In this document: piece after piece, positions 2,252 to 19,420 of the stretch
Position numbering within the stretch: the stretch's first letter is position 1
Layout of the letters: every line of letters starts with the position of its first letter
Origin: an uncultured virus (IMG/VR IMGVR_UViG_3300028393_000055)
Taxonomy: Duplodnaviria; Heunggongvirae; Uroviricota; Caudoviricetes
Virus record (IMG/VR): IMGVR_UViG_3300028393_000055
DNA length: 20,000 nt
Direction: 5' to 3' (one strand)
Translations under genes and position numbers: made by a program
Notes under the pieces: model-generated
Databases searched by the model: none
Told to the model about the DNA's origin: nothing
What the model saw: only the letters and a program-made list of their open reading frames with translations

Positions 2252-3160
2252 TTACTCGTCATCCTCAGCGAGCTTTTCGAAGAATGACAGGTCGTCATCA
2301 TCTACAGCCTTAGCCTTTGGAGCAGGTGCCGACTTCCCTACTGCTGGTGCAGCCATTGAACGGGCAGTCGGACGGTCAAAAGGGATGTCATCCTCATTGC
2401 GATAAGATGCACCAGCCGGCTCAGCAAGAACCTTCTCCAGCTTTGCCTTCAACTCATCGTAAGACTTGAAGTTAGACGGCGCAAGAAAAGCCTGAAGCGA
2501 ATTAGCACCTTGCCACATTGCAGCCATATCTTCATCATTATCAGCAAGAGGAGCCTTGCCTTCAAACTCGGACTTATCATAGTTGCGATAGCCTTCGACC
2601 TTGCGGATCTTTAGCTTGAAGTTCGCGCCATCCCACAACTCAAATGGGTTGACAGGCTTCTCATCTTCAAACTGAGGATTCATAACCTCATTGATCTTAT
2701 CCCAAATCTTCTTTCCGTACTTGAAAAGAAAGACTTTGCCTTCATTCTCAGGATGTGCAGGATCCTTGAGTACGACAATGTTTGAGATGTAGTTGAGACG
2801 ACGCTTACGCTGACGGACAATTTCCTTATCCTTATCGTTGCCAGAATTCCAAAGCTTGGAGTTCATCTCAGATACAGGATCTTGCTGACCGATGGTAGTC
2901 AAAGAGTTCTCAATATACCAACCACCTGGGCCCTGAAAGCCATGATTCCAAACACGGACCCACGGAACTTCTTCACCAGCAGGAGCAGGAAGAAAGCGAA
3001 TAACAGCAAAGCCATTACCCATCTTGTCTACTTCAGGTTGCCAGAAACGCTCGTCCTTAGACGAACCAGTTTCCTTAGTTGATAGCTTGTTGATTTCTTT
3101 GGTAAGACGCTCAAGTGAGGATTCGCGATTGCGCTTGAGGTTCATAAATGCTTCATTCAT
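2252..3160 (-). CDS. gp32: T4 gp32-like single-stranded DNA-binding protein
   Basis: Motifs DERFWQPEVDKMGNGFAVIRFLP, HGFQGPGGWYIENSLTT, GKVFLFKYGKKI, GANFKLKIRKVEGYRNYDKSEF, and an acidic tail DDDDLSFFEKLAEDDE. Confidence 0.96.
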   Translation of the reverse strand: MNEAFMNLKRNRESSLERLTKEINKLSTKETGSSKDERFWQPEVDKMGNGFAVIRFLPAPAGEEVPWVRVWNHGFQGPGGWYIENSLTTIGQQDPVSEMNSKLWNSGNDKDKEIVRQRKRRLNYISNIVVLKDPAHPENEGKVFLFKYGKKIWDKINEVMNPQFEDEKPVNPFELWDGANFKLKIRKVEGYRNYDKSEFEGKAPLADNDEDMAAMWQGANSLQAFLAPSNFKSYDELKAKLEKVLAEPAGASYRNEDDIPFDRPTARSMAAPAVGKSAPAPKAKAVDDDDLSFFEKLAEDDE

Positions 3161-3221: not shown

Positions 3222-3252
3222 TATTTATACACTATTCTGGTGCAAATGTCAA
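3222..3252 (-). promoter_or_regulatory. Composite sigma70-like and T4 late promoter for gp32
   Basis: Minus strand reads TTGACA (3252-3247), a 17-nt spacer, then TATAAATA (3229-3222). Confidence 0.75.
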
Positions 3253-3842
3253 GACAAAAACACCTGACGCATAATCTTTTTGATGTTATCAGGATCAACT
3301 CTCACGAATGGCCTGTACTTTTTTAGTTGGCGATACACCTCAGGCCATATGATGGTATCGCCAATTACCTTGTTCCATGCATCAAGCACATTGAAGGCAA
3401 TATCAAAAGCAATTACGGTTTCCGCAGAGACCTTATTGCCCATATAGAGTTTGATTAGTTGTGGATGCTCACCAGTCGTCTTCAATAAAGACTTCGGATC
3501 ATCCACATCATCAACGATTTTATTTAGTTCTTCTTTGAGCTGGTACGAGAAAGTTTCCATGCGCTTCAACCAAGCAACATAAACTTTCTCTGACTCGGGT
3601 CCTGACATATCACCGACCCATCGTACACCGGCAGACGAGACAAAGTTAGCGACAAAGAAATTGGTTAGTTCGTCATCGCTATATTTGCGTTCAATCTTGC
3701 GAAAGAGATATTGGTCCTTGCGCTTTAGAAAGGACGCTTCGGATATCTTTTTGATTTTGCCAGAGTATTTGATGAAGTCATAGTCGGATGTGAAGTGAAG
3801 CTTGAGAGCCTGATAGCGTTGGTATGCTGTCATGCCTTCCAT
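3249..3842 (-). CDS. gp59: T4 gp59-like helicase loader
   Basis: AYQRYQALKLHFTSDYDFIKYSGK, FLKRKDQYLF, FFVANF, HPQLIKLY, KKYRPF. Canonical position upstream of gp32. Confidence 0.92.
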   Translation of the reverse strand: MEGMTAYQRYQALKLHFTSDYDFIKYSGKIKKISEASFLKRKDQYLFRKIERKYSDDELTNFFVANFVSSAGVRWVGDMSGPESEKVYVAWLKRMETFSYQLKEELNKIVDDVDDPKSLLKTTGEHPQLIKLYMGNKVSAETVIAFDIAFNVLDAWNKVIGDTIIWPEVYRQLKKYRPFVRVDPDNIKKIMRQVFLS

Positions 3843-4942
3843 TAGTTGATTCTCCAGCCTCGAGATTTCATCTTCTCAATGCGCCACGGTGCTACTAGTT
3901 CCATAATACCGCACTGATTAGATCGAATCTGTGTGTTCTTAATCGTATCAAATACGTCGCGTGTGATATAGAGTTTATCATTGTACGGTGTATATGATAT
4001 GCAGCAATGCACCATATCAAAATGAGCAATGAGTTCCGCGCGTGTGGTGTATGATGTAGTAACGAACTGGTTCTTATGATTCATATCAAACGCAGTAAAT
4101 TCAATCTTGTCATTGTTCATATAGTCGGTGCTACCGATCTTGAACATGCCAGGTTTATCTAAGATCCTTGCATCAACATATTCTTTGACGTACTGTTTTG
4201 TCTTGGCATCATCAAGGATGAAAACATCAATATCATGTGGCAGTTCCTTGCTAAGAAACGACGCAAAACAACCGCCAGCGACAACTACCTTTTCATTGTA
4301 CATGAGTTTTTCTGGCACAAACTTGAGATAGTTATTCTTTAGAACATACTTCATATTGCGAATCTCGGCCTGCTCTGCATCTGTAAACAATGCATTGCGC
4401 GCCATCTGTTCGTGCTTATAGTCAATACCAAGCACATCATCAACGAACCCTTGCCTTGTGATAGAGCCGTTTGGATTTGCCATCCATTGACCCAACGTAG
4501 GCAAACTAGATCCTACAGCACCAGGATGACCAATGCCACCAGAACCACCAGCGCCTGTTGTTATTACCACGGTGCTATCGGATACCCATTGAGTGCTACC
4601 GATTATGGTACTATCAGCAGCATAATCGTAGATACCATCTGACCAAGCAGTTTGGCTATTCGGCATTTGATTGACCTTTGGATTTAGTATTTCACGGAGT
4701 TTGTCTAACGGTACTGCCATAACGTCACTAATAGCCTCTAAGATAACAAAGTATGGATCTCTCGCATCCTCAAGTTCGTAGCGAGTGATTTTTTTCGATC
4801 TGTTAGTTACTGATGAATTGATTGTAAATCCATCGAGAGCAAAATCTTGATACAAATGGATGTGTGGAAGTTTTAGATCCTGAAACCATCTATGAAGGTT
4901 CGACATTGAAGTGGGACCACCACTATTATATGCAGGTATCAT
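3842..4942 (-). CDS. Hypothetical protein with a C-terminal nucleotidyltransferase-like domain (poly(A) polymerase/CCA-adding head-like)
   Basis: VVVAGGCFASFLSKELPHDIDVF (GG...DxD) and a downstream HFDMVHC. The N-terminal half is unrecognised and joined by a Gly-rich linker. Confidence 0.55.
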   Translation of the reverse strand: MIPAYNSGGPTSMSNLHRWFQDLKLPHIHLYQDFALDGFTINSSVTNRSKKITRYELEDARDPYFVILEAISDVMAVPLDKLREILNPKVNQMPNSQTAWSDGIYDYAADSTIIGSTQWVSDSTVVITTGAGGSGGIGHPGAVGSSLPTLGQWMANPNGSITRQGFVDDVLGIDYKHEQMARNALFTDAEQAEIRNMKYVLKNNYLKFVPEKLMYNEKVVVAGGCFASFLSKELPHDIDVFILDDAKTKQYVKEYVDARILDKPGMFKIGSTDYMNNDKIEFTAFDMNHKNQFVTTSYTTRAELIAHFDMVHCCISYTPYNDKLYITRDVFDTIKNTQIRSNQCGIMELVAPWRIEKMKSRGWRIN

Positions 4943-5187
4943 ATCGGAAGCTTTGCTCCAGTGCGTTTGATTAGATTAGAACCTAGCGCCTCTGATTGAA
5001 TAAGCTTTTTGATTTTTGGTCCGATGAGACGAGGCACACTCTCGGGTTCAAGCCCGGACGCGGTACACACATCCAAGCAAGCGTCAATATATGTCATACT
5101 TTTATTGAAGACACGATCTTCTACCATGCGAGCAAATGTTTCGCTTGTCATAATACTCGCTGGTGTATCGTTCATGCTTGCAATCAT
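4939..5187 (-). CDS. gp33: T4 gp33-like late transcription coactivator
   Basis: FARMVEDRV...MTYIDACLDVC...LEPESVPRLIGPKIKKLIQSEA...NLIKRTGAKLPI, located upstream of gp59/gp32. The start is probably 5187 (ATGA overlap with the upstream stop) or 5175, rather than 5265. Confidence 0.88.
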   Translation of the reverse strand: MIASMNDTPASIMTSETFARMVEDRVFNKSMTYIDACLDVCTASGLEPESVPRLIGPKIKKLIQSEALGSNLIKRTGAKLPI

Positions 5188-5957
5188 TCCTTCTTTTTCT
5201 TGACTTTCCCTGCTGCTACTCCCGCCATCTCTATCTCCTCCAAAGAACGACCACATCCCGTGCATCTTCCATCATCTCCAAGTTTGCAAATTGAAACACA
5301 AGTTCCAAGGTCTTTAGGCACAATAGGTAAATCATTAGCATTTAGTTTACGCAATGATTCTGCTAGACCAGAGTTAGAAGCAACGGTTGTCGTCACAGAA
5401 CCAAACATCATCGAATCAAATTGCGCTGATGGAGAAATAATAGACGACATCACTGGTCCAATACCTACAGGATGAATTGTTTGCCCCTGCGGTAATGTCG
5501 CATAGCCTGCTTTATCATACTTAGGAATCACACGACCAGTATCATACTCAAAATCAATCGGCACTGGTACTGCGACAGGATTCTTTTTGATCGGTGGCAT
5601 ATTAGAAGCCATCGGACCGCCAGTGTTCTTGCGCTTGATATCTTCGCTAAGGAGTTCGGGCCAATAAAGTTCTAGTGCGCTGCAAGCTTCAGTGCAAACA
5701 AAGAAGTGATATTCACCAGGCCGAACGCTAGTAAAGTCACCTGCTCGGAGAACAGTAACATCGGTAAGCTCGTAGTTATTCTTTCGTACATGGATTTCCA
5801 GTACTCCTGATTCAACGTAGAATCCATTCCATTTATGTTCATGTAGGTGCTCCGAGCAGCGAAAACCTGCCTTTACGTTGATCTTATGTAGCTCGACCAA
5901 TGCGTTCTGAATAATAACACTGGTGTCACCCCAAATCTTACCTGTCACGTTAGCCAT
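5184..5957 (-). CDS. Cupin-domain protein fused to a C-terminal DUF1289-like four-cysteine domain
   Basis: N-terminal GKIWG...SEHLHEHKWNGFYVESG...VRPGEYHFF cupin motifs; C-terminal CVSICKLGDDGRCTGCGRSLEEI. Confidence 0.7.
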   Translation of the reverse strand: MANVTGKIWGDTSVIIQNALVELHKINVKAGFRCSEHLHEHKWNGFYVESGVLEIHVRKNNYELTDVTVLRAGDFTSVRPGEYHFFVCTEACSALELYWPELLSEDIKRKNTGGPMASNMPPIKKNPVAVPVPIDFEYDTGRVIPKYDKAGYATLPQGQTIHPVGIGPVMSSIISPSAQFDSMMFGSVTTTVASNSGLAESLRKLNANDLPIVPKDLGTCVSICKLGDDGRCTGCGRSLEEIEMAGVAAGKVKKKKE

Positions 5958-6387
5958 GAGTAGCGCCGTCCTCTTCTTCCTTTGTCAAATCAAATGGACC
6001 ATGAAATACGACTTCTCTATCGGTAGCTTCCCAACCATCGTTTTCCATACCTTCGTGCCACTCTTCATCAAACAACTCTTGGATACGCTCTTGCTCTTCC
6101 TCGTCCATGTCATCAGGAAAAGTCCACGAACACGCGACGCCATCATCAAAGCTATGATCCATCAAATCATAGTCAAGCGAATAGATATCAATGCCATTAT
6201 CATCATCAAGGTCAATATCCTCAACGGCTTTGAGATAATCCTTGAAATCTACATCATCAGGAACATCGAACTTGGCATAACCCCAACGCCACCAAGTCTC
6301 GTATTCAATAACTTGCCCATCCTTATTGAAGTATTCAGTTTCCTGAATGTTCTTCTTATACCGAGTTTCCAGCTTCCAAATTGCCAT
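5950..6387 (-). CDS. Hypothetical highly acidic protein
   Basis: 145-aa ORF overlapping both neighbours, with a plausible RBS (AAAGG) upstream; very Asp/Glu-rich. Confidence 0.75.
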   Translation of the reverse strand: MAIWKLETRYKKNIQETEYFNKDGQVIEYETWWRWGYAKFDVPDDVDFKDYLKAVEDIDLDDDNGIDIYSLDYDLMDHSFDDGVACSWTFPDDMDEEEQERIQELFDEEWHEGMENDGWEATDREVVFHGPFDLTKEEEDGATHG

Positions 6388-7216
6388 TGTCTAACCTTTC
6401 ACTTCTTTTCACTACATCATCAATCTCAAGTAAACTATACAACAATGCGTCGAACTTGTCAAGTGCAATCATGTTCGGTCCATCGCATGGTGCATTATTT
6501 GGATTCTCGTGGACTTCCATAAACAAACCAGCAATACCTACAGCCGTGGCTGCGCGAGCGATAAGCGGTACAAACTCACTCTGCCCACCAGAACTTGATC
6601 CATTACCACCTGGTAGCTGTACAGCATGAGTGCAATCCATGAAGACTGGGTAACCCCAATACTTCATAATCTCAAGCGAGCGCATATCGACAACAAGGTT
6701 CTTATAGCCAAACGTGGTACCACGCTCAGTCAATATGATTTTCTTGCAGCCGAAATACTCAAGCTTCTTGACTACGCTACCCATTTCTTCGGGTGCCATA
6801 AACTGGCCCTTCTTCACATTGACTGGCTTATGCGTTTGTGCAGCCGATTCAAGAAGGTCAGTTTGCCGACAAAGAAATGCGGGGATCTGAATAACATCAG
6901 CATTCACTGCATCGCAATGCCAGTTTTCATGTACGTCCGTGAGGACTTCAATGCCCCTACCACGGACGGCGTCTATTCCATAAAAAGCCTCGTCGAAGCC
7001 TGCACCTCTATAAGCAGTAGCGGATGTTCGATTAGCCTTATCGAAGGACGTCTTATAAATGAAGTTGATTTCTTGCCCGAATCGTTTACCAACACTATCT
7101 ACGATTGATTGCAGCGACTCTGCCATAAAGATAGCATGTTTCTGAGACTCGAATGCACAAGGACCAGCAATAATACTAAGTGGTTTTGAATTGCCGCAAT
7201 CATCATAGAATGACAT
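6356..7216 (-). CDS. kdsA: KDO-8-phosphate synthase, metal-dependent type
   Basis: IIAGPC, SFDKANRTS, LTDVHE, QIPAFLCRQTDLL, NVKKGQF, ERGTTFGY, DCTHAVQLPG, FMEVH, CDG. Confidence 0.96.
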   Translation of the reverse strand: MSFYDDCGNSKPLSIIAGPCAFESQKHAIFMAESLQSIVDSVGKRFGQEINFIYKTSFDKANRTSATAYRGAGFDEAFYGIDAVRGRGIEVLTDVHENWHCDAVNADVIQIPAFLCRQTDLLESAAQTHKPVNVKKGQFMAPEEMGSVVKKLEYFGCKKIILTERGTTFGYKNLVVDMRSLEIMKYWGYPVFMDCTHAVQLPGGNGSSSGGQSEFVPLIARAATAVGIAGLFMEVHENPNNAPCDGPNMIALDKFDALLYSLLEIDDVVKRSERLDNGNLEAGNSV

Positions 7217-9115: not shown

Positions 9116-9804
9116 GCGAACTCCGACAAACTGGCTTTGAGCCTACGCTCGTAGCCATCGCGCACACGAACCAAATCAGCCACATAATCATTTCGCTTGC
9201 CTTCAAACACATCAAAATCGCCTTCGTCTGATACAATCAGAATGGCAAAGTCCAGCGTACGGATGCCAGTGTGCTCCTCGAACATGATGGAGTAGGCTGT
9301 GGCCTGTAGAAAATAATCGTGGATTTGGTCACGCTTTTTTTGGCGTATTGATGTTTTGAAATCAACCACAGTTGGCTTACCATTCCATTCGCAGATAAGA
9401 TCGGCTGTGCCAGCAATGCGAAGAATGTCGGAATACATTGCTGATTCTGTAGCATACACCAACTGGAGATTGGTGTCAACGCATTTCTGCACCTTGCGGA
9501 ATCTTTCAACAGTCGCTGGCATCTCTTTAGCCAGATTCAAATCATCACCAAGGATATATTTTTCCATAATGTGGTGGAGTTGAGTGCCACGCTTAGCAGC
9601 TCCCTGGCTAATTTTGTTAGCCTCGTTCGCGCCCACGCGAGAGCGCCACTCTGCGATGGACTTTTTCTTTTCTGGCTGAGAAGAAAGGACAGTTGTGATG
9701 GATGGGTAGACGTTAGCCTCAGGCGTCGAATACCGACGCCCAAGGTCTGTGTTGATTTGCTTTGCTTTTGGCAAATCTATGTGCATATCAAAGTCAAATT
9801 TCAA
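9112..9804 (-). CDS. PD-(D/E)xK exonuclease of T4-like phages
   Basis: YPSITTVLS, EWRSRVG, RGTQLH, IAGTADLI, VVDFKTS, YFLQATAY. It follows phoH, as in many marine T4-like phages. Confidence 0.88.
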   Translation of the reverse strand: MKFDFDMHIDLPKAKQINTDLGRRYSTPEANVYPSITTVLSSQPEKKKSIAEWRSRVGANEANKISQGAAKRGTQLHHIMEKYILGDDLNLAKEMPATVERFRKVQKCVDTNLQLVYATESAMYSDILRIAGTADLICEWNGKPTVVDFKTSIRQKKRDQIHDYFLQATAYSIMFEEHTGIRTLDFAILIVSDEGDFDVFEGKRNDYVADLVRVRDGYERRLKASLSEFA

Positions 9805-10589
9805 TTTATGATGCCTCGCTCTTCCAGATTGATTCGTGTAATTATATAGTCTTTCACGAAGCCCGAGCGGACGATATCACCTTTCTCAAACTTTACAATT
9901 TCAAAGGACTTCATGTGGTCTGCAATCTTCAAAAGATTTGGCATGCCAGATCCCTCGCGCATGTAGTCCTTTTGATTGAAGTCGCCACATAAAATGATAC
10001 GACAACCTTCACCAACACGAGTCATAATGGTATTCAATTCAGCATCACTCATATTCTGGCATTCATCCACGATGATGATGCTATTCTTGTATGTGATACC
10101 GCGAAGAAATGAAGTGGTGCAAAATTCAATGTAGTGATTTGTTTTGAACCACTCATATGGATTTGGCTTGTCAACTAGTTCAGCACATATTGCTGAGTAA
10201 GGTGCTTCATAAACTGCGGCCTTTTCTTTCGCGCTACCTGGAAGAAATCCAATGTCACGCGATGGTACTACGCTGCGAATGATAACGATAGGCTTTGGAG
10301 CTTCACCAGATAATACCGAATAGAGTGCGAGATATAGAGAAAGGAATGTCTTACCAGAACCAGCGACACCGTGCAGGATCATATTCTTGCCTGCATCATA
10401 TGCCTCGAACACTTTACGCTGTGCTTCTGTCTTTGGTATAATTGATTTCAATCGCGGTGGTGGTACAAACGACGGTTGGCCGTATGCTTTTGTCTTTCGC
10501 TTTTTTTCTTTTCTACCTCGTCTTGTAATGTACTTATCTGCCTCTTGCTCTAGGAACTTCTCGTTAACCACCTCAGCGACTAGGGACAT
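9801..10589 (-). CDS. phoH: PhoH-like ATPase
   Basis: Walker A GVAGSGKT, IGFLPG, SFLRGITY, IIVDECQN, TRVG, GDFNQ, DIVRSGFVK. Confidence 0.95.
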   Translation of the reverse strand: MSLVAEVVNEKFLEQEADKYITRRGRKEKKRKTKAYGQPSFVPPPRLKSIIPKTEAQRKVFEAYDAGKNMILHGVAGSGKTFLSLYLALYSVLSGEAPKPIVIIRSVVPSRDIGFLPGSAKEKAAVYEAPYSAICAELVDKPNPYEWFKTNHYIEFCTTSFLRGITYKNSIIIVDECQNMSDAELNTIMTRVGEGCRIILCGDFNQKDYMREGSGMPNLLKIADHMKSFEIVKFEKGDIVRSGFVKDYIITRINLEERGIIN

Positions 10590-10890: not shown

Positions 10891-10902
10891 TATTTATAAA
10901 TA
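10891..10902. promoter_or_regulatory. Overlapping divergent T4 late promoters
   Basis: The palindrome TATTTATAAATA contains TATAAATA on both strands (minus 10898-10891, plus 10895-10902), exactly at the point where gene orientation diverges. Confidence 0.8.
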
Positions 10903-10920
10903 AGCGTAAAGGAGAAAATC

Positions 10921-11202
10921 ATGGATCAATGGTTCAAATTAGTTGCAGAAGTTGGCTTTCCTATCGCGGCTGCGTGTGCGGGTGGCTACTTCGTATTCCT
11001 CACAATGAAATTCATTCTAGCAGGTGTTATGTCCAGTGTCAAGGGTCTATCTGGCATCATCACCGCGCTGGACAATCGAGTAAAGACAATGAACCACGAT
11101 GTTATTCGTATTGACACTTTGGTTTCGAATGCTCTTGGTGTGAAGCCAGATGTGGATCGTATCGCAAGAGCGGATGGTAAGAATGACGCACGAAGGGATT
11201 AA
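10921..11202 (+). CDS. Small membrane protein (YvrJ/holin-like), paralog 1
   Basis: RBS AAGGAG; EVGFPIAA followed by a TM helix and a coiled-coil-like segment. Confidence 0.7.
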   Translation: MDQWFKLVAEVGFPIAAACAGGYFVFLTMKFILAGVMSSVKGLSGIITALDNRVKTMNHDVIRIDTLVSNALGVKPDVDRIARADGKNDARRD

Positions 11203-11323
11203 GATTGAAGTGATAGAAAGAACCAGAAACGGTATATCATATTATACCGTACTTCTAAATGATTGGGTATTTTTGATAACCAAAAATAAAAGCTTGGCGC
11301 AAAAAATTTTTAGGGAGAGTTGA
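11183..11323 (+). CDS. Possible 46-aa hypothetical protein (not in the ORF track)
   Basis: MTHEGIKIEVIERTRNGISYYTVLLNDWVFLITKNKSLAQKIFRES* spans the whole gap between the two larger genes. Confidence 0.45.
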   Translation: MTHEGIKIEVIERTRNGISYYTVLLNDWVFLITKNKSLAQKIFRES

Positions 11324-11325
11324 TC

Positions 11326-12795
11326 GTGAAATTTTTGTCATATCATGTTTGGCCGTACGAAACACCACCACCTACTATTAGACGTTATGCTGCACATGAT
11401 TCGAATATCAGCTATTTTGATGGAAAAACTATTCGTTATTTTAAAAGCGAAAGAATGTTTCAGATAAAACACCACAAATTATCTGTTAACGATTGTGATG
11501 ATATAACAAAAAAAATATGGGGTGTTAGTAGAGACGATGTTGATGATGTAATTTTTGTTTCTGCTGACTCTAATACAGTTGAGCCGCAATCAAATTTTAA
11601 AAATCTAATAAAGCACATATATTGTGAATCTACCGACGGAACAAAATTTATAGACCATCATTACGCACACGCTCTTAGTGTTTCTCTTTTAGAAGACGTT
11701 GATATCAGCATTAATATAGATGGTAAAGGATCATTGAAGAGTTGGTCCGTATATCGTGGAGAACAGTTTCTTGATTGTGGTTATATAGATATAGCTGGGT
11801 CTATAGGTTTCAGTTTAACACACATAGGTCATAAGTTAAATATAAAAGGCGACGATATAGATTTGGCTGGTAAGTTAATGGGAGCACAATCTTATGGTAA
11901 CATTGATAATGAACTATTGAAGCTATTAAGAAAATACGATATCTATAATATAAATCCTGTGATGTATACTTTTGAAGGATATACCAAAAAATTAAATTGG
12001 TTAAGAACTGTCCATGAACGATATGGAGAAATGGTTTTAGAGCTATTTGAAAAATACGCTAAACCGAATGAACGAATAGGTTATAGTGGTGGTGTCGCTC
12101 AGAATGTGATATGGAATTCCAAACTCAAAGAAAAATATCCAAATCTTGTAGTGATGCCGTATTCTGGCGATGAAGGTTTATCTTTGGGTGGCATGGAATT
12201 TCTACGCAGAAAACATAATCTACCTAGGTTAAGTATGAGCAATTTTCCTTTTTGCCAATCAGACGAATCTCCTCCATCCGAATGCTTACAATTAGATAGA
12301 GTTGTAAATGCTTTAGCCAATGGTAAAATAGTTGCTTGGTATCAGGGTAATGGAGAGATTGGACCTAGAGCATTGGGTAACAGATCCATACTTATGGATC
12401 CTAGAATTGTAAATGGCAAAGACAAAATCAATCGGGTAAAGAATCGAGAATCTTTTAGACCATTTGGTTCTTCCATATTAGCAGAATTTGCAAAAGAGTA
12501 TTTTGATGTGGATTATGAAAATCCTTATATGCTATATGTGGGTAAAGTACAGAAAGATAATCTATCATCAATAACACATGTTGATGGTACTTGCAGATTT
12601 CAAACCGTAACAACTGGGCAATTTCGGCAATTGCTTGAAAAATTTTATGAGCTAACTAATTGTCCAGTTCTTCTAAATACGAGTTTGAATAACGCTGGAA
12701 ATCCAATTGCAGCATTTTCTGCAAATGCTCTTTATGAATATGAAACAAATGCCATTGATATGCTTGTCATAGGCAATGAGGTTTACGAAAGGTAA
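11326..12795 (+). CDS. NodU/CmcH/TobZ-family carbamoyltransferase
   Basis: AHDS, DHHYAHA, DGKG, AGKLMGAQSYG, SGGVAQNV, GDEG, EIGPRALGNRSIL, VKNRESFRPF, HVDGTCRFQTV, LNTSLN. The start is probably the GTG at 11326, after GGGAG. Confidence 0.93.
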   Translation: MKFLSYHVWPYETPPPTIRRYAAHDSNISYFDGKTIRYFKSERMFQIKHHKLSVNDCDDITKKIWGVSRDDVDDVIFVSADSNTVEPQSNFKNLIKHIYCESTDGTKFIDHHYAHALSVSLLEDVDISINIDGKGSLKSWSVYRGEQFLDCGYIDIAGSIGFSLTHIGHKLNIKGDDIDLAGKLMGAQSYGNIDNELLKLLRKYDIYNINPVMYTFEGYTKKLNWLRTVHERYGEMVLELFEKYAKPNERIGYSGGVAQNVIWNSKLKEKYPNLVVMPYSGDEGLSLGGMEFLRRKHNLPRLSMSNFPFCQSDESPPSECLQLDRVVNALANGKIVAWYQGNGEIGPRALGNRSILMDPRIVNGKDKINRVKNRESFRPFGSSILAEFAKEYFDVDYENPYMLYVGKVQKDNLSSITHVDGTCRFQTVTTGQFRQLLEKFYELTNCPVLLNTSLNNAGNPIAAFSANALYEYETNAIDMLVIGNEVYER

Positions 12796-12800
12796 TAAAC

Positions 12801-13241
12801 ATGGATGGTATTGCTGATCTAATTAACAAATATGGCTTTCCTATTGTCGCTGCTGGTGGCATGGGGTACATGATTTACTATGTATGGACATGGGCAACCA
12901 AAGAAATCAAACCAGTCACAAGTGAAGCAAGCACCGTTCTTATTGCTTTGATCGACCGCATTCGTATGCTCGACAATGACCTTATCCGTTTGAACCAGAA
13001 AATCAATATTGTTCTCCAGTTGCGTGGCAAAGAAATTGAATCCGAACGCCATCTGCACGATGTTGAAACCGCAGCCAAAGCACAAAAGCGCGAATTAGAA
13101 GCAGCGGACAAACAAGTGAAAGCTGCGGAAGAACTAGCAGCCAAACATAACCACGAGGCTGTCAATGTAGATGACGGGTCCATAGCGAACCCAGAGCAAA
13201 ATACCAAGCAAGAGCCAGACAAGAAAAATAAGAAAGTATAA
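12801..13241 (+). CDS. Small membrane protein (YvrJ/holin-like), paralog 2, with a charged C-terminal extension
   Basis: KYGFPIVAAGGMGYMIYYVW TM helix; LIALIDRIRMLDNDLIR aligns with paralog 1; RBS AAGG. Confidence 0.7.
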   Translation: MDGIADLINKYGFPIVAAGGMGYMIYYVWTWATKEIKPVTSEASTVLIALIDRIRMLDNDLIRLNQKINIVLQLRGKEIESERHLHDVETAAKAQKRELEAADKQVKAAEELAAKHNHEAVNVDDGSIANPEQNTKQEPDKKNKKV

Positions 13242-13245
13242 TATC

Positions 13246-15303
13246 TTACTTGCTGTTGGTACGGAATACGCCATCCCAATCCTTAGGTAGAGGATTCTTT
13301 TTATAGTCCTCCACGCGCTCTTTCATCATTTCATAATATTCTTTTAGATCACCACCAAATGCGGATTCTAGTACATGAAAATAATTTTCAAGTCTGTCCC
13401 ATTCCTGTGCGCGATAGTATTTGATGAAGTCTGCGTGTGTGCGAGCATACGCCTTATTGATACCAATCTTTTCAACGATGGTGTATATCTTCACACCTTC
13501 GCTCTTACCCTTCACGGCAAGGCAATCAAGTTCCACGCATAGATATTCATCCTTCACATATTCATAAGTCTTAGGACCAATGACCATCTTCACATGATAT
13601 GGCTTGCTCTGCCCTTCCAGGCGCGAGGCTAGATTGACAGTATCACCGAGACAAGTATAATCAAAGCGTTGACTACTACCCATATTGCCAACCACAACGG
13701 AGCCTGTGTTAATCCCAAGACCCATACCAAAGGGTGGAACACCCTCAGTGGCGATCTCTTTGTTAAATCGTTCCAAATCACCTAACATCTCCAGTGCTGT
13801 CTTTACTGCGTGTTTCGCATGGTCTGCGTCATCAAGTGGCGCATTCCAAAATGCCATCTGCGCGTCACCGATATACTTATCTAGTGTGCCGTCGTTTTGA
13901 ATTATCTTAGCTGTCATCGCTGTCATGTAACGGTTCATTATTTTCGTAAGGCCCTGTACGTCATTACCGTAATGTTCAGAGATAGTCGTAAAGCCCCTAA
14001 CGTCAGTAAACATAATAGATAGCTCGCGGGTCTCTCCTCCCAAGCACAATAGTTCTGGGTTCTTCTGTAGTTTCTCGACCAGTGCAGGTGAAAGGTAAGT
14101 ACCGAACTGCTTTTTAATTTGTTGCTTTAGTCTAAACTCACGAGCGAAATTGTTGAATACCAAGTGTCCATATACAACAGATATAGCCAATACAATATAG
14201 CTTGCATCCCATAGCTGTAGCTCTGTTTTGAATAAATAATAACTCGCTGCTGATACTCCAACCACAATGAAAGCGTAGAATGGAACCGTTAACGCTACCG
14301 TCAGTCTTGGAACTATATGGAGCAATAGTAGCAGGATGGTGGTTAGTAGTGCTCCTTCTATTAGCCTTCCTACGTTGGGGCGAGAAATAGAAGTTCCGTC
14401 TACCAGTGTTTGAAGTGTCTGCGCTTGAATTTCGTGCGCCCATTTTTCACCGATTGGTGTGGCTATAATACCCCCAACACCTTCAATCGTTAAACCAAGA
14501 ATAACAATCTTGTCCTTCACGCGGGCGTCTATTTCAGTTGCTTCTAGCGTATCAAACTTGGTATTCCAAGTCAACCAGATACGACCTCTTTCATCGGTTG
14601 AGATTGGTGGAAAAGCTGGGACTCTTACAGCCTCTATTCCACCTTCGTTCGTCTTAACTTGGAAGCTAGGGTCTCCAGCAGCGACACGAATGGTTTCCAA
14701 AGGAATACTTGGATAAAGACCAGATGCAATATTGACAAGTAGAGGCATACGGCGAACCACACCGTCCAATTCAGAGATTGTTGCGACCACACCAACGCCT
14801 GAGGCAACTTCGGCATACTTGTCAAGAGGGCGTAATCCACCAGGCCAACGATAGACAACCCTAGCAGGATCAACAGGACCGATAGCAGCGAACCCACGAC
14901 GAACCGAGTCGGGCTTACTGTTTTGAGTAGTAGGGGTTTGAGCGAGGACAACACCTTCAAGAGTTTTTGCCAGTTCATCATCGCCTCCCGCTCTATCTTT
15001 CTCAGAGAATAGAATAGGCGCAACGATTACCGAAGCGCCGTTCTCTTTTAGTTTATTGATTGTCTTTGCGATATCTCGTCTGTCAAATGGCCACTGACCA
15101 AACTTCTCGACCGACTTCTCACCAAAGTTAACAATTACAATCTCTTCTGATTGTTTCTTCTCCAGAGAAGTTATGAAGAGGTCGAACGTATTCAATTGTA
15201 GCTTTTGTATTGGACTGGGATTGATTACATACAATGTCAACAGGAGACAGGCGCTGATAGCAACCATCCATGTGCTTGTAAGAAACTTGACTAGCTTTTC
15301 CAT
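13246..15303 (-). CDS. CHASE2-domain membrane class III adenylate cyclase
   Basis: N-terminal TM; CHASE2 motifs (IVIVNF, FGQWPFDR, ILFSEKD, DGVVRRMPL); three TM helices; cyclase motifs FTDVRGFT, DKYIGDA, GINTG, VGNMGS, DYTCLGDTVNLASRLE, VKGK. Confidence 0.95.
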   Translation of the reverse strand: MEKLVKFLTSTWMVAISACLLLTLYVINPSPIQKLQLNTFDLFITSLEKKQSEEIVIVNFGEKSVEKFGQWPFDRRDIAKTINKLKENGASVIVAPILFSEKDRAGGDDELAKTLEGVVLAQTPTTQNSKPDSVRRGFAAIGPVDPARVVYRWPGGLRPLDKYAEVASGVGVVATISELDGVVRRMPLLVNIASGLYPSIPLETIRVAAGDPSFQVKTNEGGIEAVRVPAFPPISTDERGRIWLTWNTKFDTLEATEIDARVKDKIVILGLTIEGVGGIIATPIGEKWAHEIQAQTLQTLVDGTSISRPNVGRLIEGALLTTILLLLLHIVPRLTVALTVPFYAFIVVGVSAASYYLFKTELQLWDASYIVLAISVVYGHLVFNNFAREFRLKQQIKKQFGTYLSPALVEKLQKNPELLCLGGETRELSIMFTDVRGFTTISEHYGNDVQGLTKIMNRYMTAMTAKIIQNDGTLDKYIGDAQMAFWNAPLDDADHAKHAVKTALEMLGDLERFNKEIATEGVPPFGMGLGINTGSVVVGNMGSSQRFDYTCLGDTVNLASRLEGQSKPYHVKMVIGPKTYEYVKDEYLCVELDCLAVKGKSEGVKIYTIVEKIGINKAYARTHADFIKYYRAQEWDRLENYFHVLESAFGGDLKEYYEMMKERVEDYKKNPLPKDWDGVFRTNSK

Positions 15304-15566
15304 CAGTATTGGCTAACGATATAAGGGCTATTGGGACAATTGAGACCACAAGTAACACTAAGACTAAAAGACTGAGGCGTGTTTCCAGACTGAGAGATAA
15401 TAGCCGAGATATTATCACCAGTGAAACTAAGGGTAGCACTATGATTAGCACCAGACTGAGTAATACTAACATTCTGTAAGGATCCTATGATGTTCACGGT
15501 TGCATTATTTACTGTCTGCGATAGAGCAGGCGTTGTCATTAGAAGGAGCGCGATTAATGTTTTCAT
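15303..15566 (-). CDS. Small secreted curlin-like protein
   Basis: Signal peptide MKTLIALLLMTTPALS; repeats NVSITQSGANHSA and ISAIISQSGN; a CGLNC cysteine pair. Confidence 0.65.
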   Translation of the reverse strand: MKTLIALLLMTTPALSQTVNNATVNIIGSLQNVSITQSGANHSATLSFTGDNISAIISQSGNTPQSFSLSVTCGLNCPNSPYIVSQY

Positions 15567-16675
15567 CAGTTGCCCTGCTTTATAGTTATCGTTGTGGTTC
15601 CAGCACTGTTTACCATCTGCGTCACTGAACCACCATCCTGAGTCAAATTCAATGTCATGTTATGCGTAGTTGATACCGTCAATTCCATATATGAGTTATA
15701 CGATTCGCGGTAGAGCGTCACATTATCCTGCTCGACAAAATACTTTAGGCCTGTTGAAGCATTATATTTAGGCAGCAACGCATTGAATTCCGCAAGCTCG
15801 TTAGTTAGCATCTGTGAACTGGATAGGTCTAGAAAGTTCAACAGGTAATCACTATCAAGAAAGTTCCTATCAAGTTTATTGTACTCTGTAAGGTAGTTCT
15901 TTTCAAGTTCGCTGTATTTGAGAAAATCAATGCCAAGTAAATCTGCGTCTAGTACGTTTGCGATACGCTCAACTGGTTGCTCACGCACAACAGGTTTTGC
16001 TGGTGCTACGATAAGCATATTATTTATCTGATCCAAATTCAGGTTCATAATGCTGGATTTTGGTGTACTGATACTGGTCTGCACATTGACAGTCTCAAAT
16101 GGTTTGGTTAACCAGATAGTGCCCATATCCGTAGTAACAGATATGGAACCAACCACGCAGTCTCGTTCAATATTGCGCCAACCAGCAGGGCAAGAAGGAA
16201 GCAAAATAATAGTAGAACGACCGATCTCATCGACGGTACCTGAGAAATCAGTTCCGCGGACACCGATTGTTGCTGTTGGTGTTTCCACCATGACTTGTTG
16301 CGGATCTGATTTAGCAATTTGCCCGGATGCATATTTGATAGTGCCGAGCGCCATCTTGATGCCAAGCTTGCCAGTTTTCTTTTCACCGTCGTAAACAAAA
16401 TTGTCAATGACAAGGCGGCTGTGCTCCGTTATCTGAACTTTGGTATCATCTTGGAATGTGATACCAGTTTTCCCGTTCGCAGTCGTTATGGTATCTTTCA
16501 TCTCAACGCCACTGGATAGTGCGCTGGAAATCAAGTTAGCATCACGCTTTATTTCTGCTGGGCCCGTTTGCTCTGTGACCTTACCAACTTCAGACTTAGT
16601 TGTGGTTGGACTTGATAAGCAGAGTATTGCCAGAACCAGTGATTGTAGAAATGACCTTAGAGTCAACACCGCCAC
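15566..16675 (-). CDS. Exported FecR-domain protein
   Basis: Signal-like N-terminus; DTITTANGKTGITFQDDTKVQITEHSRLVID, GTIKYASG and VETPTATIGVRGTDF (the FecR hallmark). The exact start is uncertain (16675, 16669 or 16666). Confidence 0.88.
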   Translation of the reverse strand: MAVLTLRSFLQSLVLAILCLSSPTTTKSEVGKVTEQTGPAEIKRDANLISSALSSGVEMKDTITTANGKTGITFQDDTKVQITEHSRLVIDNFVYDGEKKTGKLGIKMALGTIKYASGQIAKSDPQQVMVETPTATIGVRGTDFSGTVDEIGRSTIILLPSCPAGWRNIERDCVVGSISVTTDMGTIWLTKPFETVNVQTSISTPKSSIMNLNLDQINNMLIVAPAKPVVREQPVERIANVLDADLLGIDFLKYSELEKNYLTEYNKLDRNFLDSDYLLNFLDLSSSQMLTNELAEFNALLPKYNASTGLKYFVEQDNVTLYRESYNSYMELTVSTTHNMTLNLTQDGGSVTQMVNSAGTTTITIKQGN

Positions 16676-17273
16676 CTTGCTTTATATCTACAGTGTTTGT
16701 TGCACCTAAGATATTCACATCGGCTTCATGTCCATTCGTAGATGCTACGCCTGTCTGAATGATGTTGACACTATTGCCACCACCACCGTCAATAAGAACC
16801 GTACTCTTCGCACCCGCGACTGCGCTGGAATCATTCTCTATGTTTACGGTGTTGTTGTCTGTGTTTACCGTCACGTTGGATATCGTGAACCCCTCGGCCT
16901 TTTGAGTGATTACGTTGTTATCGCCTGTGATGGTATTATTCAATGTTGAACCAGTACATGTACCACTGACACCGCATTGCATGTTGATGGTGTTATTATC
17001 ACCAGTAACAAGTGAAGACGCGGTTACGCCATCACCTTGAACATTGATGCTCATTAGGTTGGTGTTACCAATCTGGTCAATCGTGACAGTATTGTTCTGC
17101 CCGTTGAATATTGCTTTGTCGGTAGAATTTCCAATCACGTTCGAATTGCCAGTCTGAGTCATAGAAATTGTAGAACCACTACCGATTTGGTCTACATACA
17201 CACTATTGCTCGCGGCGTTTGCATATTGAAGCATAACCAAGAATGACAAAAATGCCAGTCTTGTACGTTTCAT
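16596..17273 (-). CDS. Curlin-like repeat protein (CsgA/CsgB-like beta-solenoid)
   Basis: Signal peptide, then N/G/T/Q-rich repeats: NSVYVDQIGSG, ISMTQTGNSN, NTVTIDQIGNTN, NSVNIIQTG, NTVDIKQGG. Confidence 0.75.
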   Translation of the reverse strand: MKRTRLAFLSFLVMLQYANAASNSVYVDQIGSGSTISMTQTGNSNVIGNSTDKAIFNGQNNTVTIDQIGNTNLMSINVQGDGVTASSLVTGDNNTINMQCGVSGTCTGSTLNNTITGDNNVITQKAEGFTISNVTVNTDNNTVNIENDSSAVAGAKSTVLIDGGGGNSVNIIQTGVASTNGHEADVNILGATNTVDIKQGGGVDSKVISTITGSGNTLLIKSNHN

Positions 17274-17278
17274 TTTGT

Positions 17279-18079
17279 TTACCTCTTCTTGATACTCCAG
17301 AGCTTCTTTTTGGCTCCCTCTTTTATCATATCGACCACTGCGGCTTCTATTGCTATTCTAACTGCATATGTTGTAGGTTCATTCGCTGCTGTTCCAGCTT
17401 CAAACTCGACAGACCTTGTACCCGCATCAACAAACTTAAACACATTCGCACCTGCGCTGGTGCTTAGAATAGTCTTGGATGATCCAGTGGACAACAGAAC
17501 TTCGCCTGTGTTTATGGATATCAAACGCAGAACCACCGTGACTTCATCCTTACGGTACTCTTGGTTGGCCCCAACGCCAAGGAATCGTGCGCCAATACCA
17601 CCAGTGCCAATGTTTGAATCAAAGCCAACAATCCCACCATCAATCATAATACCTGCGACGGTCAGTGGTGTAAGCGGCTTTGCCTGATCCTTTTCGTATA
17701 GCTCACGTTGGCTACGAATGAGCTGGCGTTCCTTTACCAGGTTCTCAAGCGAGGCCCGCTCTACCACTTGAAACCACCGACCCCTACCGGCGTCCTGGAG
17801 AGCTTTTATCAGGAATACCTCTGCACCCTGCGTGACTGCGGAACTCAAGCTGGCAAAGTTGGTAGCGGGCTTGCGTTGACCAGTCATATCCGGGAAGCGG
17901 TAGACTGCGATCGGAATGATATCGCCATTCACACCTCTCAAATTAGCCAACTCATTGAACCGCTTGTTCATAATGATTTCTGGTGCGTCTGCTACCTCTT
18001 CAATCACATCCTTTGACATAAGCGTTGGCGAGCAACCAGCCAACAGTAGGCCTACCAATACCATACCAATCTTTACCAT
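17279..18079 (-). CDS. csgG: CsgG-like outer-membrane secretion pore lipoprotein
   Basis: Lipobox LLAGC; IAVYRFPDMTGQRKP, SSAVTQGA, LIKALQDAG, WFQVVER, LVKERQLIRS, GGIVGFDSN, GGIGARFLGVG, YRKDEVTVVLR, NEP. Confidence 0.94.
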   Translation of the reverse strand: MVKIGMVLVGLLLAGCSPTLMSKDVIEEVADAPEIIMNKRFNELANLRGVNGDIIPIAVYRFPDMTGQRKPATNFASLSSAVTQGAEVFLIKALQDAGRGRWFQVVERASLENLVKERQLIRSQRELYEKDQAKPLTPLTVAGIMIDGGIVGFDSNIGTGGIGARFLGVGANQEYRKDEVTVVLRLISINTGEVLLSTGSSKTILSTSAGANVFKFVDAGTRSVEFEAGTAANEPTTYAVRIAIEAAVVDMIKEGAKKKLWSIKKR

Positions 18080-18513
18080 GCTAAACTCCCGTAGGGAACC
18101 ACAACCTCTGTGACGCTACCAGCTGCGTCGGTTATTCGTAATGTAATCTGTGAACCATCCGATGACCATTGGACATTGTTTGTCGCTATGCTAAATGTGC
18201 CAGACGTTGCACCATTATCAGTAAACAACTGCTCGGCTATCTTCTGTGAGAGTGTAGCATATACACGGCTCTCGAGGTTATTGATAAACTTCGCAAGGTT
18301 CGTATTCTTTGCATCAGATGCGGCCTTGGATGCAGCCGCAACCTTGTCATCCATGATCTTCTGGCGTCTGGTCTGTTCTAAGTTCTCAATGGTTAGGACA
18401 TGTGAAGAAAAGCCCACACCTGAGAAGGCGGGGCTTTTAAAGTTAAACTGTAGTTCGGTCGCATATAGCGGCATTGCAGCCACACATAACAAAGCTACTA
18501 AAAGCTTTCTCAT
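18073..18513 (-). CDS. csgF: CsgF-like curli assembly protein
   Basis: Signal peptide followed by TELQFNFKSPAFSG (the CsgF N-terminal pore-binding motif), FINNLESRVYATLS, ITDAAGSVTEVVVP. It lies directly upstream of csgG. Confidence 0.85.
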   Translation of the reverse strand: MRKLLVALLCVAAMPLYATELQFNFKSPAFSGVGFSSHVLTIENLEQTRRQKIMDDKVAAASKAASDAKNTNLAKFINNLESRVYATLSQKIAEQLFTDNGATSGTFSIATNNVQWSSDGSQITLRITDAAGSVTEVVVPYGSLAW

Positions 18514-18518
18514 GCACC

Positions 18519-18526
18519 TATTTATA
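18519..18526 (-). promoter_or_regulatory. T4 late promoter for the csgF-cyclase operon
   Basis: TATAAATA lies 5 nt upstream of the csgF ATG and overlaps the thyX stop codon. Confidence 0.7.
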
Positions 18527-19211
18527 TGTCAAGGGATGCCAGTACTTCTTTGAGCGATGGGAATGCGTCGGTAATCTGATCCCAGGCCTGCATAGCAATC
18601 TCACGGTGTTCCTTCTGAGTGCTTGCGTCTGTTCTTACTTGGCAATAATGGATCCAAGAGCGAAGGCTGCCAGCCATATACATGCGACTAAGAATAAGTC
18701 CCTCAGGTAGTACAGCACGAGCTTGCTCCTTTGCGATTCCGTTTTCGATTGCCCAGTTGTATGTTTGTTCTGCTGCTTTGATGAGCATGACTTGGTTGTT
18801 GTGCCATTCCCGTTTGAGATCTTCGTCGGAAATCTCAATCGAGTTCTGTCGGTTTTTTGTGTCTTGTAGACGGGCTTCACGGGTAACGAACCCCATGTCT
18901 TTTGTGGGATCGGCATAGCGTTGACTGAACTCCTGAAAACGGAATGAACGGTGACGCAGGATCTGTCTACCAATATCACGGGTGGTATTGATTTCCATCA
19001 CCACATCAACCATCTCAAACGGTGACCAATGCTTATGCTTCGCAAGGTACTTCAAAAGCTTTGAAGCTGTCAGTGAGTTATTCTGATTAGATGGATTACT
19101 CACGCGGGCCACGTATGCGATAAACTCATCAACCGAAAGCTTCTGAGGATCACCGGGTGCATCCGTCCAAATCTTCGGTTCTGTCATAGCAATAATTTTA
19201 GCAGTGTTCAT
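18522..19211 (-). CDS. thyX: Flavin-dependent thymidylate synthase
   Basis: YVARVSNP, HWSPFE, QILRHRSFRFQEFSQRY, AKEQARAVLP, SLRSWIHY, TQKEHREIA. Confidence 0.96.
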   Translation of the reverse strand: MNTAKIIAMTEPKIWTDAPGDPQKLSVDEFIAYVARVSNPSNQNNSLTASKLLKYLAKHKHWSPFEMVDVVMEINTTRDIGRQILRHRSFRFQEFSQRYADPTKDMGFVTREARLQDTKNRQNSIEISDEDLKREWHNNQVMLIKAAEQTYNWAIENGIAKEQARAVLPEGLILSRMYMAGSLRSWIHYCQVRTDASTQKEHREIAMQAWDQITDAFPSLKEVLASLDI

Positions 19212-19420
19212 ACTGTAGCTTCCTTGATTAGTTTCATAACTTGTGTGGCGGACTCTTCAACTTCCCATGTGATCGGAGGTCCAATTCTTGCATGAATGAA
19301 GGTTGTCAAGCTACCATCTTTAATTTTAGCATGGTCATATACCGCAGTGATATGATCGACATTAATGAAGATGGCTTCACCTTGAAATTCATTCGCGGTG
19401 TTTGTTACTTTTATGAACAT
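19208..19420 (-). CDS. Small protein resembling the FlbD/SwrD family
   Basis: Likely start at MFIKVTN (19420); pattern IFINVDHITAV...TFI...WEVEESATQVMKLI. Confidence 0.5.
   Translation of the reverse strand: MFIKVTNTANEFQGEAIFINVDHITAVYDHAKIKDGSLTTFIHARIGPPITWEVEESATQVMKLIKEATV

Follow-up and report, generated by a model that had tools for sequence, protein, structure and literature searches.

What use would a T4-like phage have for the secretion pore of bacterial curli fibres, and why should the genes for that pore be joined to genes for a FecR-fold protein and a CHASE2 adenylate cyclase? The question is raised by a 20,000-nucleotide stretch of DNA from an uncultured virus (IMG/VR record IMGVR_UViG_3300028393_000055), which as a whole is called the window below, and in which six co-oriented minus-strand open reading frames (ORFs) spanning 13246-18513 encode, in order along that strand, CsgF, CsgG, a curlin, the FecR-fold protein, a mini-curlin and the cyclase. 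A first reading of the sequence (the original prediction) took these genes for a candidate trans-envelope signalling system with cyclic AMP (cAMP) as its output. The cassette has, however, already been published by Wittmers et al. 2022 (PMC9599517), who gave its gene order and assigned FecR and the cyclase a part in regulation, and the window holds an additional copy rather than a new system. Apart from novelty, the trans-envelope cAMP reading is plausible and is partly supported by gene context, namely by the co-conservation of the genes and by the link between FecR and CHASE2. Our composite reading, which we consider evenly balanced between right and wrong, is that of a viral curli cassette whose FecR-CHASE2 pair reports the state of the envelope as cAMP. 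Because the cassette was already known, the value of this analysis lies in a sharper, testable hypothesis about FecR and not in a discovery.

The anatomy of the cassette is nearly certain. All six genes lie where the original prediction had placed them, on the same strand and with the same overlaps or abutments, and the proteins all match the Pfam families for which they were named, in each case above the curated cut-off (Table 1). The csgF and csgG genes overlap by 7 nt, csgG is separated by 5 nt from the gene for the 225-aa curlin, and the latter overlaps fecR by 80 nt, so that the signal peptide of the FecR protein is coded within the final 80 nt of the curlin gene; a comparable overlap is found in relatives. 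One nucleotide is shared at the junction of fecR with the 87-aa curlin gene, and likewise at the junction of the latter with the cyclase gene. The cassette has a GC content of 41-47%. Export signals had been claimed for every product. These were recognized in the CsgG lipobox, the hydrophobic N-termini of CsgF and FecR and the helices of the cyclase, whereas the signal-peptide-like N-termini of the two curlins were picked out by eye and fall under the hydropathy threshold used. Judging from the Pfam assignments of neighbouring genes (gp32, gp59, a late-transcription coactivator, PhoH and ThyX), the phage that carries the cassette is T4-like.

According to Wittmers et al. (PMC9599517), podoviruses and myoviruses alike have a conserved gene order of CsgF, CsgG, CsgA/B, FecR, a second curlin and an adenylate cyclase; these authors also report cassette transcripts in metatranscriptomes, an alphaproteobacterial origin, and the presence of the cassette at every ocean station they examined. 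The word CHASE2 does not occur in the text of that paper. A curli cluster had been noted earlier in pelagimyophages by Zaragoza-Solas et al. 2020 (PMC7029224), in whose account the freshwater SAR11 myophages are without it. The same six-gene order is annotated in two T4-like phages, Pelagibacter phage HTVC008M and Methylophilales phage Melnitz (GenBank KC465899 and MZ577097), whose cassette proteins are 30-53% identical to those of the window; in a tblastn search with the cyclase, Melnitz matched at 44% identity and HTVC008M at 42%. The present copy differs from these in the second curlin, which has 87 aa where its Melnitz counterpart has 338 aa and that of HTVC008M has 441 aa, and from the published viral cassettes in that the whole block is inverted relative to a neighbouring membrane-protein gene of family phrog_18771. 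A megablast search of the cassette against deposited phages returned no nucleotide match. At least half of the sampled words of the cassette were present in five sequencing runs, of which four carry the label freshwater metagenome and the fifth simply metagenome; two of the five may be the source of the record.

Is the cassette a unit, or simply a chance assembly? The cassette is widespread, since at least 594 viral contigs have a match to the cyclase and at least 582 a match to FecR. The best 80 cyclase matches were kept and gave 79 loci, 51 of which have at least 4000 nt of upstream sequence; in 46 of the 51, csgF, csgG, fecR and the cyclase gene follow one another in this order on one strand, and a curlin gene lies between csgG and fecR in 44 of these 46. 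The five exceptions comprise two clusters longer than the flank (L057 and L073), two loci in which tblastn did not find csgF (L078 and L080) and one with an inverted cyclase gene (L077). When the best 80 of the FecR matches were used as the seed instead, csgG was upstream in all 70 loci with enough flank, and 66 of 72 had the cyclase gene, which lay downstream in the same orientation in 62 and was inverted in 4. Both samples consist of the closest relatives, and the podovirus forms of Wittmers et al. lie outside them; within the samples, linkage is maintained down to about 40% identity. A viral contig of 154,689 bp, with an estimated completeness of 93%, encodes a cyclase 99% identical to that of the window. 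The cassette is thus conserved as a unit, and the co-conservation of FecR and the cyclase with csgFG, on which the original prediction had staked its case, is what the relatives display.

The phrog_18771 gene next to the cassette adds to this picture. Most related loci have a homologue of it, which immediately precedes csgF in the same orientation or else immediately follows the cyclase gene on the opposite strand, and these two arrangements are what one would expect if the six-gene block inverts as a whole. The phrog_18771 gene is possibly associated with the cassette.

Gene pairs in bacteria bear on what the FecR protein and the cyclase do together. In a sample of 401 evenly drawn alphaproteobacterial genomes, the phage FecR protein matches 135, over the FecR domain only, and the phage cyclase matches 129 at E <= 1e-60 (33-46% identity). 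Nine of the 18 regions around the best FecR matches hold a CHASE2 gene within 9 kb, and FecR and cyclase matches lie within about 3 kb of each other in at least 22 of the 129 genomes with a cyclase match, so that the predicted co-occurrence of the two in bacteria is borne out. The arrangements vary. One locus (L126) has consecutive genes that by Pfam encode PilZ, a 153-aa FecR protein, a member of the OmpA family and a CHASE2 cyclase, another (L141) has a FecR-like protein followed by a CHASE2 cyclase, and in three more (L127, L132 and L137) CHASE2 is fused to a SpoIIE/PP2C phosphatase beside FecR proteins. FecR accordingly accompanies CHASE2 whatever the output, cyclase or phosphatase, which places FecR on the input side. 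In a further three loci the FecR domain lies near the N-terminus of a giant RTX protein (L128, 2760-5252; L135, 8995-11751; L140, 9223-14793); type I secretion genes (ABC/HlyD/OEP) adjoin these giants, and a CHASE2 cyclase lies at a distance of about 8 kb. The giant protein of L140 contains 13 RTX repeat stretches, and the genomes that encode such proteins include small ones of 1.4-1.6 Mb.

Curli genes are not part of these bacterial loci. Neither csgG nor csgF was found in any of the 18 FecR regions, and the close CsgG homologues (41-52% identity) present in 7 of the 401 genomes, leaving aside one Rhodobacteraceae metagenome-assembled genome (MAG; G002), have no FecR or cyclase match nearby among the matches listed (0/7). 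Within this sample, the fusion of FecR-CHASE2 with curli genes therefore seems peculiar to phages, a point also made by Wittmers et al. (PMC9599517). This separation is also an argument for regarding the cassette as two unrelated cargo modules that met at an insertion hot spot, one for curli fibres or a pore, the other a FecR-cyclase pair that independently raises host cAMP for metabolic ends. The cassette does lie in a variable region with other cargo, such as a low-GC carbamoyltransferase gene. However, two modules would hardly be expected to keep a fixed order with overlapping genes, to have fecR placed between two curlin genes, to invert as one piece and to stay linked over such sequence divergence, and we regard this explanation as improbable.

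The MAG just set aside deserves a comment. It has five CsgG matches on separate contigs (the contigs concerned are C129, C173, C240, C200, C87 and C49), and C129 and C173 hold the whole phage-type cassette including the phrog_18771 neighbour; these cassettes represent either several co-binned phages or a signal from the host. A scan of bacterial genome contigs with the cyclase yielded five loci, all on MAG contigs, and no chromosomal bacterial context; G002 was the bin among these that was looked at more closely.

The cyclase itself has the domain plan of a receptor enzyme. Hydropathy indicates one N-terminal hydrophobic helix, a periplasmic CHASE2 domain of about 285 residues (roughly 30-312) and two or three more helices, followed by a class III catalytic domain (roughly 420-610) and a conserved C-terminal tail. 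The closest solved cyclase domains are those of Pseudomonas aeruginosa CyaB (3r5g, E 1.4e-31) and Spirulina CyaC (1wc1, E 1.8e-28). In 33 viral homologues there is no variation at D434, K476, D480, T550, N557 or R561, and the set aligns to both structures; D434 and D480 we take to be the metal-binding aspartates, K476 and T550 the substrate lysine and threonine, and N557 and R561 the transition-state asparagine and arginine. Because the catalytic set is complete, the protein is predicted to be an active, ATP-specific class IIIb enzyme.

A studied bacterial parallel is found in Sinorhizobium meliloti, where CyaD1, CyaD2 and CyaK are CHASE2 cyclases of the same architecture as the phage protein, and a FecR-domain gene (smc02177) lies beside cyaD1. 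The S. meliloti CHASE2 cyclases are described as responding to an outside protein via outer-membrane NsrA (PMC13001267), a precedent in which the sensing of an outside signal depends on a protein of the outer membrane (PMC13001267, PMC5498481). The two systems differ in that the outer-membrane partner is NsrA in the bacterium and not CsgG, and in that a receptor, Clr/CRP, is known there whereas none was found in relatives G004 and G001 of the phage.

With these parts, the following sequence of events can be proposed. Late in infection, the genes would be expressed from a TATAAATA box, and an outer-membrane CsgG/CsgF channel would export the curlin subunits. In the inner membrane, the periplasmic sensor of the CHASE2 cyclase would work with the FecR-fold protein, the two being perhaps a sensor module borrowed from Alphaproteobacteria that in the phage was joined to pore genes. 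The pair would report the state of the periplasm or envelope, most simply the loading of the pore or fibre, as cAMP, and the cAMP would act on host proteins. The sensing step, taken by itself, is tentative and falls a little short of an even chance. The original prediction went further in suggesting that the sensor may detect an outside event such as superinfecting phage and perhaps time lysis; no finding of this analysis speaks for either.

Several observations weigh against the proposal that FecR and the cyclase report envelope state as cAMP. Podovirus cassettes are described that contain FecR without the cyclase and have a histidine kinase instead (PMC9599517), so that FecR cannot act only through this cyclase. 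In S. meliloti, smc02177 was reported to be dispensable for signal perception (PMC5498481). The cyclase gene was not seen in 6 of the 72 FecR-seeded loci, although in at least one of these (L167) the contig simply ends. Searches of relatives G004 (93% complete) and G001 found no cNMP_binding domain, and with no cAMP receptor seen there, proteins of the host would have to be the target of the cAMP. There was no RNA run among the sequencing runs listed with cassette words. Finally, linkage of genes in a phage island can reflect joint transfer and not joint function.

How could the FecR-fold protein take part in sensing? It consists of a signal peptide, a beta domain (about 28-220), a disordered linker (about 219-302) and a small C-terminal beta domain (303-367), and 32 of 32 homologues match Pfam FecR. 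The structural model has a mean predicted local distance difference test (pLDDT) score of 70.7, with about 85 for the beta domain and block means of 61-78 for the C-terminal domain. Its best structural match is the C-terminal cell-surface-signalling domain (CCSSD) of PupR (6ovm; Z 15.3, root-mean-square deviation (rmsd) 2.5 over 134 residues), an entry in which the CCSSD is in complex with the signalling domain of its outer-membrane partner, and the second is a Bacteroides anti-sigma factor (4m0h, Z 14.3). The third is a beta-sandwich, the RIN domain of MpIBP, an ice-binding adhesin from Marinomonas (5ix9; rmsd 2.1, 73 of 76 residues superposed on model residues 27-121, with the next row at Z 4.8), with a Z of 7.0, and a value under 8 can reflect a merely common arrangement of strands. 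Foldseek E values for the 6ovm, 4m0h and 5ix9 families are 2e-4, 6.5e-4 and 7.9e-3, respectively. The C-terminal domain (303-367) has no clear fold, its best structural Z being 3.7.

With the FecA-FecR-FecI and PupB-PupR systems, the phage protein shares the periplasmic FecR fold and potentially the logic by which an outer-membrane protein signals to a periplasmic FecR domain and from there to the inner membrane. It differs in being soluble and in lacking a cytoplasmic anti-sigma domain, and beyond the signal peptide no membrane helix was found (the fold starts at about residue 28-31). A Pfam search with the 26 main ORFs of the window turned up neither an extracytoplasmic function (ECF) sigma factor nor a TonB-dependent transducer, and the output would be cAMP. 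These differences also bear on the suggestion, raised in PMC9599517, that an ungated CsgG pore serves to take up iron chelates or cofactors, FecR having the role that it plays in ferric-citrate signalling. The periplasmic gate CsgE (PF10627) was indeed not found in G004 or G001, in a search that did detect an Escherichia coli control, and its absence would suit an open channel. Among curli systems in general, CsgE is not universal. The uptake channel does not account for the curlins and CsgF, and it is hard to reconcile with a FecR protein that has neither anti-sigma domain nor membrane anchor and with the missing sigma factor and transducer; we consider it extremely unlikely.

The likeness to the RIN domain suggests a different role. 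This domain was proposed to be a periplasmic plug that keeps the ice-binding adhesin in a TolC-like pore (PMC5550230), and for the related retention module of LapA the plug role was reported on genetic grounds (bioRxiv 10.1101/198937). The possible resemblance of the phage protein to the LapA/MpIBP module consists of the superposition on FecR residues 27-121 and of the occurrence of bacterial FecR relatives on RTX giants. In contrast to these modules, the phage FecR protein is small, is exported by the Sec route and goes together with a CsgG pore, which is not TolC-like; at 369 aa and with no RTX repeats, it is not the N-terminus of a type-I-secreted RTX adhesin. Because PupR and RIN are both periplasmic domains that dock under an outer-membrane channel, the FecR-fold protein might be the physical link in a new form of cell-surface signalling. 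As a plug or tether, its beta domain would dock below the CsgG/CsgF channel, into or through which the long linker and the C-terminal domain would extend, and occupancy would be read by CHASE2 as cAMP and not by release of a sigma factor. The bacterial FecR/CHASE2 loci would then be the same relay with other outer-membrane partners, such as OmpA-like proteins and type I or two-partner secretion pores. The plug role is a conjecture drawn from structural analogy, and as a whole we think this extension doubtful.

A likeness between the C-terminus of FecR and the curlin repeat was considered as well. The hhalign comparison with the curlin C-terminus gave only E 0.024 and a probability of 2%, and none of the 32 FecR homologues matches Curlin_rpt. 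In only two of ten clade representatives did as few as 16 of 300 shuffles, or fewer, reach the observed score, and control segments did equally well. Matched and mismatched locus pairs scored 25.8 and 25.2, with 6863 of 20000 permutations at least as high. The likeness was rejected as an effect of composition.

The remaining proteins are those of a curli system. CsgG residues 8-264 align to solved E. coli CsgG (3x2r, 4q79 and 6l7a; E 3.7e-48), and the lipobox LLAGC falls on the E. coli lipobox LLSGC, cysteine included; the protein is an outer-membrane lipoprotein pore of the CsgG family. CsgF is hydrophobic at residues 4-22 with a signal-peptide-like N-terminus, and has no match by sequence among solved chains. 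For the 225-aa curlin, a profile of 25 homologues matches the solved curlins 8c50 from Pontibacter (E 1e-9) and 8enq, E. coli CsgA (E 0.0032). Its model (pLDDT 86.3) is an all-beta, regular beta-solenoid whose best structural match is again Pontibacter CsgA 8c50 (Z 20.0 over 194 residues, rmsd 8.5, 24% identity), with further beta-helix proteins at Z 16.8 and below. The CsgG/CsgF channel would export the curlin subunits, which may then assemble into fibres. Compared to the curli system of E. coli, the window shares the full-length CsgG alignment, the CsgF family and the curlin-repeat beta-solenoid subunits. The additions are FecR and the cyclase, the phage location and the late-type box, while CsgE was not found in the relatives, as described above.

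The smaller curlin is more changeable. Of the 46 ordered loci, 24 have a FecR stop codon that abuts or overlaps the cyclase start (gap -3 to +28 nt), so that another curlin gene could not be accommodated; in 17 the gap measures 257-304 nt, the right size for a mini-curlin of about 87-100 aa, and in five it is 552-1938 nt. The 87-aa mini-curlin is therefore optional among relatives. Across the wider set (L057, L070, L073, L076, L079, L081 and many FecR-seeded loci), the space between fecR and the cyclase gene ranges from 0 to about 5 kb, and since long curlin-like or other genes have been inserted there, it is the variable slot of the cassette.

Should the cassette then be seen as a fibre machine, in which curli-like fibres on the infected cell serve aggregation ('sibling capture') or block superinfection, while FecR and the cyclase do no more than regulate or tune the type VIII secretion (curli) system? 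Such is the view put forward in the literature (PMC7029224, PMC9599517). A full minimal curli set (CsgG, CsgF and curlins) is present, and a second curlin gene that varies from 0 to about 640 aa would fit a surface-exposed, fast-evolving product. However, a phage late-type promoter box needs no control by cAMP, and no CsgD-like or cNMP-binding regulator turned up in G004, where no search aimed at CsgD was made. Buchholz et al. 2022 (PMC9004378) report that cultures infected with Melnitz did not clump. The fibre view also leaves unexplained why FecR is tied to csgG as tightly as the fibre gene is (70/70), and on balance we consider it rather unlikely as the full account.

Buchholz et al. (PMC9004378) proposed instead, for Melnitz, that the CsgGF pore is a lysis-timing device and acts like a pinholin or secretin. 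In the present cassette, FecR and the cyclase would then set the opening time. The late-promoter-like box suits this proposal, as does a short and weak holin match (phrog_4898, E 1.6e-4 over 21 residues) of the 146-aa phrog_18771 protein. That match is marginal, however, and the gene may belong to the phage backbone; furthermore, the proposal assumed that fibre subunits were lacking, whereas curlins are encoded here. CsgG is an outer-membrane lipoprotein, and such a protein is unable to act as a holin, whose effect is to depolarise the inner membrane. A role in the timing of lysis is accordingly very unlikely.

The expression of the cassette was predicted to occur as one late operon behind a single box. 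The T4-type late-promoter-like box is indeed at the predicted site (Table 1) and the gene overlaps are real; the case for a single operon consists of this consensus box and the overlaps. The window contains five TATAAATA boxes as compared to 0.97 expected (1 of 200 shuffles reached five), and all five sit just upstream of ORFs. HTVC008M has the identical box with the identical 5-nt spacing to csgF (L002, 3578-3593). Among relatives whose csgF is not preceded by a phrog_18771 gene, 15 of 24 have NATAAATA 13-31 nt upstream of csgF, mostly followed by GGAG. Where the phrog_18771 gene comes first, a late box lies just before csgF in only 1 of 24 loci (HTVC008M), and a box is found within 1500 nt upstream in 20 of the 24, mostly ahead of small genes. 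The box of the window thus probably acts as the late promoter of the cassette, to judge by its consensus and placement. Scans of 12700-19300 revealed no excess of sigma-70 promoter-like sites (10, as compared to 11.6 expected) or of terminator-like sites (8, as compared to 5.0 expected).

The close spacing of the box has a possible consequence of its own. T4 late promoters have a characteristic distance from box to start site, which would put the transcript start at or beside the csgF ATG. With a gap of 5 nt, both here and in HTVC008M, the csgF mRNA may be leaderless or nearly so, provided that the T4 spacing holds. In most other relatives the box is found 22-31 nt upstream, together with a GGAG.

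What is at stake can be stated briefly. The cassette gives infected cells an envelope structure of curli type that is reported to be absent from the SAR11 and OM43 hosts (PMC9599517, PMC9004378). If it is true that FecR-CHASE2 reports envelope state as cAMP, this would explain a common bacterial gene pair, and the phage would be installing a sensory pathway of its own in the infected cell.

Table 1. Genes and promoter-like element of the window, in order of position, with the assignments on which their names are based
Feature	Coordinates	Strand	Product (aa)	Assignment or position
gp32	2252-3160	-		Pfam
gp59 helicase loader	3249-3842	-		Pfam
Late-transcription coactivator	4939-5265	-		Pfam
PhoH	9801-10589	-		Pfam
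phrog_18771 membrane protein	12801-13241	+	146	phrog_18771 E 1.7e-31; convergent with cassette
CHASE2 adenylate cyclase	13246-15303	-	685	CHASE2 E 2.8e-40; Guanylate_cyc E 4.4e-22
Mini-curlin	15303-15566	-	87	Curlin_rpt E 2.2e-5
FecR-fold protein	15566-16675	-	369	Pfam FecR E 1.7e-10
Curlin-repeat subunit	16596-17273	-	225	Curlin_rpt E 3e-5; 24.3 bits (cut-off 20.7)
csgG	17279-18079	-	266	Pfam CsgG E 1.4e-52
csgF	18073-18513	-	146	Pfam CsgF E 1.8e-18; profile positions 6-132 of 132
TATAAATA, T4-type late-promoter-like box	18519-18526	-		5 nt ahead of csgF ATG; overlaps thyX stop codon
ThyX	18522-19211	-		Pfam

The surroundings of the cassette contain further signs of gene traffic. The phrog_18771 gene next to the cassette has a paralogue of 93 aa at 10921-11202, and the two flank a low-GC insert (35-37%) with a 57-aa ORF and the carbamoyltransferase gene (11320-12795). 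Back-to-back TATAAATA boxes lie at 10891-10902, and the region 10891-13241 looks like an island inserted between duplicated genes for small membrane proteins. At the far end of the window, a 707-aa ORF (96-2219) falls in no Pfam family and has a weak PHROG match (phrog_6376, E 1.7e-4). Upstream of the replication genes are genes for a cupin plus DUF1289 protein (5184-5957) and for a DAHP-synthase-family enzyme (6356-7216, E 1.2e-61), and the genes of 5184-7216 are possible metabolic cargo.

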